Origin: Escherichia phage ev243
Sequence record: NC_049955.1
Length of the DNA: 45,560 nucleotides
Strand: one strand, 5' to 3'
Position numbers: made by a program. The first letter of the stretch is position 1. Every line of letters begins with the position of its first letter. Of the stretch, positions 20,801 through 23,800 are shown in pieces.

Positions 20801-23800
20801 CTTCACTGGACGTTACAGAAACAGGCACAGATAGTTTCGGGTTTAATTATGGTCGGTTTGTCGTACAGGATTCGATTGTTGGTACAAGTAAAGCGCATAC
20901 CATTATCGGACTGTATTCGAGTACCGGAGGGGTTGATACTTCAGGGGACGAAAAGCATGTAACTATATCCTGTCGGGTAAAAAGTGAAGTTGATAATATC
21001 GCCGTTCGTATTTTATTTGAACATTATGATGGGGAGGTAAGGACATCAATAGGAGCAGCAAACCTGAACCTTACCACCCGCATAATTAGCAAGACAGGTC
21101 AGACAAGCCGTGTTACAGCAAGGTCTGTTAAGGATGATGCAACTGGCTGGATATTTTTTGAGGCTACATTAAAAGCAGATACAACAGAAAATACGGTTGG
21201 TGGTTTTGTCCAGTATTCTCCGGATACAGGGCAGATGGTTACATCAGGGGATTATCTCGATGTAACCACTCCACAGATTGAGGCTGGTACAGGCGCATCA
21301 TCTTTTATTGTTACGGGGACGGCACCGGCAACGCGGGCAAGCGATATGGTGACAGTCCCAATCAAGAATAACCTTTATAATCTTCCTTTTACGGTTCTTT
21401 GTGAGGTACATAAGAACTGGTATAAAACGCCAAATGCAGCACCGCGTGTTTTTGACACATACCGGCATCAGGCAGATGCGGGGATCGTAATGGGGTTTGG
21501 TTCATCAGGTGGGTACGACGGTTTTCCGTATTGTGATATAGGTGGTTCAGACCGACGAATAAATGAAAATGCCGGGCTGGAAAAAATGCTTATTGGTATG
21601 CGGGTAAAGTCCGAACGGTCCACATGTGTAGTCAGTAACGGTAAGTTAAGCAGCGAAACTAAAACCAAATGGGAATATATCCGGAGTACAGCAACCATTC
21701 GCATTGGTGGACAAACTACAGCAGGATTACGCCATTTATTTGGGCATGTGAGGAATTTTCGTCTCTGGCATAAAGAGCTAACAGATGCGCAGCTTGGGGA
21801 GGTTGTGGAGTGAGAGATTTCACGTTGCGTTTCAGTGATAAAGCAGATTTCAGGGCATTTCTCAGGAAACTTAACTGGGAAGAGGACGAAGAGCTGCAGA
21901 ATGCCGTTCTGGTTGATGAGATTGGTTTTACGTTCAGTGAGTCAGGTGTTTCTGCTGACGGGGAGCCTGAATACACGCGAGACGAAGGGTACTTTGTTAA
22001 TATTCGTCTTCTTGACGATGGCTTTGATGAATCCGTGTTCCGTGAGTGGGTGGTTACACCAGAGCGCCCGCTAAGGGAGTGGTTTTAAGGGGAGCAGATG
22101 GATATCACGTCGATACTTCATGCGCTTTGTGCCGTGGCGGTGCAGGTACTGGCTGGTCTTTTTACCGGAAACTGGGCTTACGGGGCGATAGCCGGTTGTA
22201 CGTTCTTCATTGCGCGTGAACACACCCAGGCAGAATATCGCTGGATTGAAATGTTCGGGCATGGCAAGCGGATTAACATGCCGTGGTGGGGCGGTTTTGA
22301 TCCACGTGCATGGGATGTGGCAAGCCTGATGGATTTTGCTGTGCCGGTGGTGGCGTGTCTGCTGGTCTGGCTGTTGGTTAATCGTGGGTGAAAAAGGTGA
22401 GCAGTATATGCAACGAAGGAGGAAACATCATTGCTGGCGGCATGGAAGGCATGCAGGGTGTTGCTGAACCGTGTTGATACATCAACTGCACCTGATATTG
22501 AGTGGCCTACGAACCCTGTCAGGGAGTAATCATTGGGATTATGCCGCAGCACGTCTTAAGCAAGAACGTGCTGCGGTTGGATGCTATTTTTTCCCTGAAG
22601 CGGAAAACATTACTACAGTACCTTGAACCTTGGTTTTAACATTCTCGAAATGCTCTGAGAGTATATGTGTTAAGCCTTCTTCGGAATCTTTTGTGTTTGA
22701 AAAGATGCCTTTCTGATTGTAAATGCGCATCAGTTTTTGACCGAAGCTATTGTGCACAACTCCATCGCCAAGAATTGTGGCTCCGTATAGAGTTCCATCG
22801 TCAGTTAAGGCCTGCGCCGCATTGCGTATTACACAGCTTTTTGTAGATATATTTCCAGGCAGGCAGTGAAGAAGGTAAAACATGGAAATGGAATCAAATT
22901 GACCATGTAACGCCGCGGGATAAGGTTCAAAAACATCATGGCTAATTTTATGTTTAATTTTTGATTCCCCTGCCCTTGTAGATGCCGCGTTCAGGCTAGC
23001 TTCGTTCAAATCCATTAAAGATATCAGACTACTCTCAGGTACGTGAGTAAGGTAAAACCCAGTTCCAACACCAATATCCAGATGGTTGTTACCTAAATGT
23101 TCCAGAAAGTGTGGAAGAAGGTGTTCCTTTGTAGGACATCCCCATGCAAGCCGATTTGATACTCCCAAAACCCACCAGTCATAAAGCTTTAGGGTAAGTG
23201 GTGTGTAAATTTTAGCCCCATCATCTGTGTTTTTTTTCATTAATTTCACCATGTTATAGTTTTATTTGTGAATTAAATCAATTATGGCGATGAATTACAA
23301 GGGGTTAAATGCTGCCGCAGCATAGCGATATTGAAATAGCCTGGTATGCTTCGATACAGCAGGAGCCGAATGGCTGGAAGACCGTCACCACACAGTTCTA
23401 CATCCAGGAATTCAGTGAGTATATTGCGCCACTGCAGGATGCTGTAGATCTGGAAATCGCAACGGAGGAAGAAAGATCGTTGCTGGAGGCATGGAATAAA
23501 TATCGGGTATTGTTGAATCGAGTTGATACATCAGTAGCTCTGGGTATGAAGCTGTTTGTAACTCATGTTACAGTAACAGTCATTACTATCTCGAAGGTGC
23601 AAAATGTATATTGATTTGATATTTTATAAATTTACTTCGAATCTGGCACGTCAACTTTTGATTAAAGTAATATCAGTTTTCGGCGAAAAAAGGACCGTGT
23701 ACATGAGACGATTTCATACAATAATAACAAAAATATGAATATGCTCCCAATGCAATATATGTTTTGCATTGGGAGCAAATAGCGGAATATTTTGAAATTA

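Follow-up and report, generated by a model that had tools for sequence, protein, structure and literature searches.

An intact ybcY-like methyltransferase gene carried as cargo by the lambda-like Escherichia phage ev243

The window analyzed here is the whole of a 45,560-nucleotide (nt) stretch of Escherichia phage ev243 (NC_049955.1), and all coordinates given below are window positions. On its minus strand, at 22584..23252, lies a 222-amino-acid (aa) open reading frame (ORF) that opens with an ATG and in the ORF listing carries HLDIGVGTGFYL (DIGVGTGFYL), exactly where a first-pass annotation made from the DNA letters had placed a class I S-adenosylmethionine (SAM)-dependent methyltransferase-like gene with this motif. 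The gene faces the plus-strand tail-fiber genes at 19744-21813 and 21810-22391, in line with the convergence with the tail operon that had been described, and the AT-richness first judged by eye holds on counting, with 41.1% GC in the coding sequence (CDS) and a third-position GC content (GC3) of 0.36 against 50.3% GC for the whole window and 55.6% for the tail region; the cargo block at 22584-26422 has 41.5% GC. The ORF order of the window is that of a complete lambda-like genome written from the terminase onward: terminase (188-2633), portal, head and tail genes, J (15518-19015), a lom-like gene, tail fiber and cargo, followed by the integrase (26905-28068, minus strand), exo/bet/gam, the repressor region, O/P, nin, Q (39892-40275), a porin and the lysis genes. 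A match to the Rfam family Lambda_thermo, the cIII thermoregulator, at 31615-31673 on the minus strand (88.5 bits) confirms a lambda-type early-left region. The methyltransferase gene occupies the lambda b-region position between the tail fibers and int and is missing from relatives that share the upstream hairpin and tfa (tail-fiber assembly) sequence, as befits the cargo gene it had been called. We conclude that a lambda-like phage has here, as part of its cargo, a real and intact SAM-dependent methyltransferase gene. The gene is at the same time a known and ordinary one, with the methyltransferase annotation already present in RefSeq genomes and in the records of isolated phages.

The first ATG, at 23252, is probably not the start codon. 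The most likely CDS covers 22584..23240 on the minus strand and begins at Met5 (A of the ATG at 23240) with MKKNTDDGAK, giving a product of 218 aa plus stop, a placement that we base on homologue length, the span of a family profile, two variant copies in Escherichia coli and the position of the putative -10 box. The majority of homologues are 218 aa long with their N-terminus at the Met5 position, and positions 1-218 of the 218 in the PHROG 2132 profile align to residues 5-222 of the ORF (E = 7.9e-157). In the second copy found in E. coli S88 an ATA replaces the first ATG while the rest is intact, and the pseudogene feature of K-12 measures 655 nt, that is, 657 minus 2. The upstream in-frame codons MVKL (23241..23252, minus strand), which both the first-pass annotation and RefSeq counted as coding, would then probably belong to a non-coding 5' leader or promoter-proximal segment.

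Directly upstream lies a candidate sigma-70 promoter, TTGATT-17-TATAAC, at 23253..23281 on the minus strand, with its -35 element at 23281-23276 and its -10 box at 23258-23253, ending directly at the first ATG. Window positions 23281-23253 are identical to the published promoter of K-12 ybcY, which is listed by genomic SELEX (systematic evolution of ligands by exponential enrichment) as the constitutive RpoD promoter TTGATT-17-TATAAC, with an H-NS site in the same ybcY/tfaX spacer (PMC3946193). A further promoter consensus match is found at 23308-23281. The -10 box is a perfect TATAAT in some alleles, among them those of E. coli ECMA0423 and Shigella flexneri SFBU1023, and TATAAC in the window and in K-12; because some alleles have the perfect box, the comparison suggests that expression may differ between strains. 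By analogy with K-12, the sigma-70 promoter in the AT-rich spacer would give the gene an expression of its own that does not depend on the lytic program, and the gene would be subject to H-NS silencing in the window phage as well.

The kinship with K-12 ybcY, stated in the first-pass annotation, proved correct: ybcY (b0562) is an annotated pseudogene of the DLP12 prophage in NC_000913, where the gene order is tfaD, ybcY (minus strand), tfaX, appY and ompT, and the position between a tfa 3' end and tfaX is the same in the window and in the S88 and 2G7b comparisons. Alignment of the two genes gave an almost base-for-base match, with a handful of base differences and a 2-bp indel. The lesion site is an A8 run at 23230..23237 on the minus strand, in codons 2-4 of the 218-aa ORF; of the ATG-A8 sequence, K-12 has lost two bases, the G of the ATG (Met5) and one A, so that the start codon is gone and the reading frame shifted, whereas the window gene is without this deletion and is, as had been proposed, an intact copy. 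The alignment thus makes the window gene an orthologue of K-12 ybcY that has stayed intact. The K-12-type lesion is also seen in two other E. coli chromosomes. The published work that mentions ybcY gives no function, and the lack of functional data is attributable to the K-12 laboratory strain holding only a dead copy. Deletion of K-12 ybcY leaves Hha toxicity unaltered (PMC2408971), which is to be expected of a pseudogene.

Between the gene and the late module there is a hairpin at 22544..22576 with 14 pairs and a folding energy of -23 kcal/mol (z = -5.4; 0 of 200 shuffles fold as well). The first-pass annotation had described the gene as bracketed by this stem-loop; the hairpin does exist, but it lies on the 3' side of the gene only and is not specific to it. 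Phage lambda lacks the methyltransferase but has a homologous hairpin after its tfa stop codon, and the versions from lambda, from K-12 (after tfaD) and from the second S88 copy all retain the stem, two of its pairs being maintained by compensatory changes. A T-run is present 3' of the hairpin on the plus strand only. Because the stem is conserved after tfa elsewhere and the T-run is confined to the plus strand, the hairpin would be the tfa/late module's terminator, placed in this phage between that module and a methyltransferase gene transcribed in the opposite direction. Rfam returned no match in or near the methyltransferase gene. A 45-aa ORF at 22502-22639 on the plus strand, for which S88 and many RefSeq genomes have a 'hypothetical protein' entry, runs across the hairpin and, on the opposite strand, into the 3' end of the methyltransferase gene; it is probably a spurious call.

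The sequences on either side of the gene suggest how it could be gained or lost. Over 22409-22578 the window shows 83% identity to the 3' end of lambda tfa and the ~50 nt past its stop codon, and within this segment lies a C-terminal tfa fragment (22410..22529, plus strand) that is annotated as partial tfa in S88. On the other side a tfaX-like ORF (23309..23614, plus strand), corresponding to K-12 tfaX, contains another C-terminal tfa segment, and its residues 29-77 match PHROG tail-fiber-assembly families. The two fragments are both C-terminal ends in the same orientation and include a 75-nt direct repeat (22410-22484 and 23459-23533; 80% identity, 1049 nt apart) that brackets the methyltransferase. 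In phages Ayreon and PhiR49_2 only the upstream tfa/hairpin part is shared with the window and the methyltransferase is absent. We infer that the cassette may be gained and lost among lambdoid prophages by recombination between tfa sequences; repeats usable as homology arms would explain its patchy presence in related phages and prophages.

Whether the gene is more than debris can be judged from its distribution. K-12 and its derivatives have a frameshifted copy, truncated variants occur in the databases (one 161-aa cluster, for instance, has 445 members), fragments of tfa are scattered over the locus and the region is bound by H-NS in K-12, all of which would fit a decaying remnant or a mis-called ORF that has no present function. 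Against this, at least 80% of the CDS is found in 3799 of 5426 complete E. coli genomes (~70%), with a median of one and a maximum of four copies per genome, and in 3270 of these the identity is 99% or higher; the cluster of the 222-aa protein comprises 6589 sequences. The ratio of nonsynonymous to synonymous substitution rates (dN/dS) is 0.09-0.12 against the Citrobacter, Enterobacter and Klebsiella orthologues, with dS near saturation, and the structure model is confident. A profile search of 1.84 billion representatives returned 1129 clusters with E < 1e-10, a number that falls to 424 when E < 1e-30 is required, including matches from Flavobacteriia and lichen-forming fungi in which the pocket motifs are kept, and a scan with one genome per species found 272 loci in Enterobacterales, Pasteurellaceae, the Pseudomonas syringae group, Xanthomonadales and Oxalobacteraceae. 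The SAM-binding and pocket residues described below are invariant from E. coli to Pseudomonas and fungi. We therefore regard a functionless remnant as extremely unlikely; the substitution pattern points to strong purifying selection on a functional gene of an old family that was picked up by a lambdoid phage.

The assignment to the SAM-dependent methyltransferases, for which fold prediction had been named as a check, is borne out by a predicted Rossmann fold (AlphaFold2 (AF2) predicted local distance difference test (pLDDT) score 89.8) and by four Pfam matches above the gathering cut-offs, to Methyltransf_12 (PF08242; 37.6 bits, cut-off 30), Methyltransf_23 (PF13489; 28.8, cut-off 27), Methyltransf_25 (PF13649; 27.7, cut-off 27) and Methyltransf_11 (PF08241; 24.6, cut-off 21.2). 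In the model, helices flank a beta sheet of seven strands, the last two of which form a hairpin. The full set of SAM-binding elements is present. In an alignment of 36 homologues (56-90% identity; 55 invariant columns), motif I reads D59-I-G-V-G-T-G65, and the SAM-binding residues D59, G61, G63, T64, G65, D81, H105 and S121 are invariant; D81 is the acidic residue at the end of strand 2, H105 is followed by D106, and D120-S121 sit on strand 4, at least 90% of the sequences having both D106 and D120 conserved. Three further blocks are invariant in the same alignment: an N-terminal one (Y16, Y24, D25, W26, W27, N33, W37 and C39), one following strand 4 in the sequence MFYLLHCLPG (Y126, L127, H129, C130, L131 and G133), and the segment Y178-N179-x-K181-G-I-F-S-N186. 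Named families are of less help. NCBIfam offers no specific model, with sub-threshold matches only (CpaM, RquA and PmtA), and sequence and profile searches of the Protein Data Bank (PDB) gave superfamily-level matches only (JHAMT and UbiG). Small-molecule methyltransferases top the structural match lists, and a viral fold library returned generic methyltransferases only.

Taken together, these data support the reading that the product is a 218-aa cytoplasmic class I SAM-dependent methyltransferase, encoded by an intact ybcY orthologue that a complete lambda-like temperate phage carries in its b-region as a moron gene, and we give this a probability of roughly three in four. With SAM as donor, the enzyme would methylate an O, N or S atom in a small metabolite of wide occurrence, a lipid head group or a xenobiotic, with an acceptor that is presumably not DNA, RNA or protein. 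Three invariant elements may shape the acceptor pocket: the N-terminal lid (Y16, Y24-D25-W26-W27, N33, W37 and C39), the loop after strand 4 (Y126, H129 and C130), in which H129 is the likely general base, and the insert between strands 5 and 6 (H167-N168 and Y178-N179-x-K181-G-I-F-S-N186). Our best estimate is an enzyme that methylates small molecules or lipid head groups and in which H129 probably serves as the base, and the lysogen, rather than the virion, would benefit.

A nucleic-acid methyltransferase, either a DNA methylase guarding the phage DNA from restriction or an rRNA/tRNA methylase, fits these features poorly. A regular-expression search found no (D/N/S)PP(Y/F/W) DNA-methylase motif in the protein, which consists of the bare core and lid (pI 6.9) with no extra domain and no target-recognition or RNA-binding domain, and small-molecule enzymes lead the structural matches. 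The related phage 2G7b encodes a DNA methyltransferase separately, within the nin region, transcription of the window gene runs counter to that of the late genes, and homologues are stand-alone chromosomal genes outside prophages, so that we hold a nucleic-acid acceptor to be highly improbable.

More specific is the proposal of a phospholipid or phospho-base N-methyltransferase of the PmtA or PMT type, which would methylate phosphatidylethanolamine (PE) or a related amine head group and alter the lysogen membrane. R-type PmtAs conserve Tyr10, Ser120 and His147 (PMC11446283). A comparison with the R-type enzyme 8ys9 by hhalign gave a probability of 92.9%, but the match is restricted to the SAM-binding core (residues 56-159) and the conserved Ser120 and His147 are replaced, Ser120 facing H129 and His147 an aliphatic residue, while PmtA His117 faces Y126. 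We therefore rejected membership of the R-type PmtAs; the NCBIfam model for PmtA has a cut-off of 390 and gives the protein 15.6 bits. For the Tyr19/His132 dyad of PfPMT, using a query sequence identical to 3uj6, hhalign gave a probability of only 42%, with His132 opposite the invariant H129 and Tyr19 opposite the non-conserved N8; an alternative register that pairs Y16...Y24-D25 with Y19...Y27-E28 is possible, but was not returned by hhalign. Template modelling (TM) scores of only ~0.6 count against the assignment. E. coli is not known to have methylated PE or phosphatidylcholine (PC), yet ~70% of strains carry the gene. We thus judge a PmtA- or PMT-like activity to be quite unlikely. Also rejected as a candidate was the metal-dependent carboxyl O-methyltransferase activity of CysG and BelI, enzymes with the motif His-His-Asp (HHD) (PMC11408123), as the window protein has no HHD counterpart and no His-His pair.

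Genomic context beyond the prophages does not tie the enzyme to a pathway. In Enterobacter and Salmonella it is a stand-alone chromosomal gene outside prophages, and when ORFs from 65 loci across genera were clustered, no conserved partner gene emerged, the commonest neighbors occurring in at most 14 loci and being lineage-specific: an SDR; crotonase, CorA and glutamine amidotransferase in Pseudomonas; PAPS-reductase-like and ParB-like proteins in Proteus. This absence of a conserved partner suggests that the enzyme probably acts alone on a common molecule. Two longer family members were noted, namely P0163 from a lichen fungus (743 aa), in which RCC1 repeats are fused to the methyltransferase and which is uninformative, and the metagenomic P0215 (510 aa), which has a 300-aa N-terminal domain without a Pfam match, so that a suspected U32 peptidase found no confirmation there; in the other long forms the start seems to have been mis-called.

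In the window, the gene is followed toward the integrase by further cargo. A 494-aa TAP-like alpha/beta hydrolase is encoded at 23798-25282 on the minus strand (Pfam Abhydrolase_1 and Abhydrolase_4; signal-peptide-like N-terminus); it belongs to PHROG 20134 and matches the PADLOC candidate model PDLC01094 'C3a206' (5.9e-57). The omptin OmpT (25469-26422, minus strand; Pfam Omptin) adjoins the integrase (Pfam Phage_integrase) and belongs to the cargo of this phage, just as it does in 2G7b, which accounts for the two ompT copies of E. coli S88. Directly downstream of the hydrolase gene, at 23742-23777 on the minus strand, is a GC-containing hairpin of 14 pairs followed by a T-rich tail. This terminator-like hairpin would set off the hydrolase and ompT genes, as a transcription unit of their own, from the methyltransferase gene and the tfaX fragment.

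The location invites two further proposals. The interval between the tail fibers and int is a hot spot for lysogenic-conversion and exclusion genes and the neighboring hydrolase matches a PADLOC candidate, which would suit a phage defense or counter-defense component that, for example, modifies a host or phage molecule to block superinfection. The sole PADLOC match of the methyltransferase itself is negligible, however (mad2, E = 0.0033, 14 bits), there is no conserved partner across the 65 loci and most family members stand in ordinary chromosomal contexts, and we accordingly give a defense role very little credence. Alternatively, the methyltransferase could be a lysogenic-conversion enzyme that acts with the secreted TAP-like peptidase/hydrolase and OmpT and methylates an envelope lipid head group or a small antimicrobial derived from the host or its microbiota. 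We consider this unlikely, but if it were true, a three-gene phage package would alter how E. coli withstands host defenses, and a function would be at hand for a conserved orphan family, ranging from Gammaproteobacteria to fungi, that was missed by K-12 genetics because the K-12 copy is broken.

Elsewhere in the window, the 689-aa tail-fiber gene (19744-21813, plus strand) has a prophage tail-fiber N-terminal domain and, at 20000-20600 on the plus strand, an Ala/Ser/Lys-rich repetitive stretch (KKSETAAASSKNAAKTSETNA...) with an AT skew of 0.47. It is followed at 21810-22391 (plus strand) by two small ORFs of 92 aa (PHROG 1361) and 97 aa (PHROG 1443), the latter hydrophobic and membrane-protein-like; neither has a Pfam match, and together they occupy the place expected for a full tfa, with only the C-terminal tfa fragment following. 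A 360-aa general porin is encoded at 41639-42721 on the minus strand between the Q antiterminator and the lysis genes (Porin_1, 3.6e-152), at the position of the IS5-disrupted nmpC of K-12 DLP12, and the window copy is intact.

The practical value of these observations is modest, and the understanding of phage or methyltransferase biology is unchanged by them. What they add are refinements: the Met5 start with its 218-aa product, the assignment of the hairpin to the tfa module, and direct tfa repeats that would be able to move the gene between lambdoid prophages. An intact, nearly invariant gene in ~70% of sequenced E. coli, including O157:H7, extraintestinal pathogenic E. coli (ExPEC) and Shigella, as well as in inducible temperate phages, makes non-K-12 strains or 2G7b-type lysogens the place to study it.

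Among the closest known systems is the isolated phage 2G7b (Nesevirus, NC_049954), which shares the architecture of the window, is 98.5% identical in DNA over a 1-kb query and carries the same cargo block of methyltransferase, tfa fragment, alpha/beta hydrolase, OmpT and integrase genes, with the methyltransferase, hydrolase, OmpT and integrase genes on the minus strand. Its gp26 is annotated 'class I SAM-dependent methyltransferase', and apart from a different upstream tail-fiber module there is no difference of substance. An E. coli S88 prophage carries the same cargo block, with the second methyltransferase copy adjacent in a DLP12-like remnant, and it is this common architecture in the window, 2G7b and S88 that places the gene in the lambda b-region slot. 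In lambda itself the corresponding slot holds ea47, the first gene after tfa and the hairpin, likewise on the opposite strand and convergent with the late operon; its protein is unrelated to the methyltransferase, and the comparison shows a generic cargo slot only. K-12 ybcY shares orientation, promoter sequence and neighbors with the window gene (a tfa 3' end and hairpin before the minus-strand gene, tfaX after it and ompT farther on), whereas DLP12 has appY where the window has the TAP-like hydrolase, and is a defective prophage where the window has a full lambda-like gene set.

The chromosomal orthologues of Enterobacter, Salmonella, Citrobacter, Klebsiella, Yersinia, Proteus, Erwinia, the P. 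syringae group and Xanthomonadales are 50-90% identical to the window protein over their full length of ~218 aa and have the same invariant pocket residues, but their neighbors vary and they are not prophage-borne, while the E. coli copies are essentially all located in the b-regions of lambdoid prophages. With the small-molecule methyltransferases of solved structure, namely JHAMT (7ebs), UbiG (4kdr), MM_2633 (3dtn), BelI/CysG (9fce), Coq5 (4obw), PmtA (8ys9) and PfPMT (3uj6), the protein shares the fold, the SAM motifs, a similar N-terminal helical lid and the His after strand 4, at 12-21% identity and TM-scores of ~0.6, whereas the family-specific catalytic residues of these enzymes are not conserved in it.

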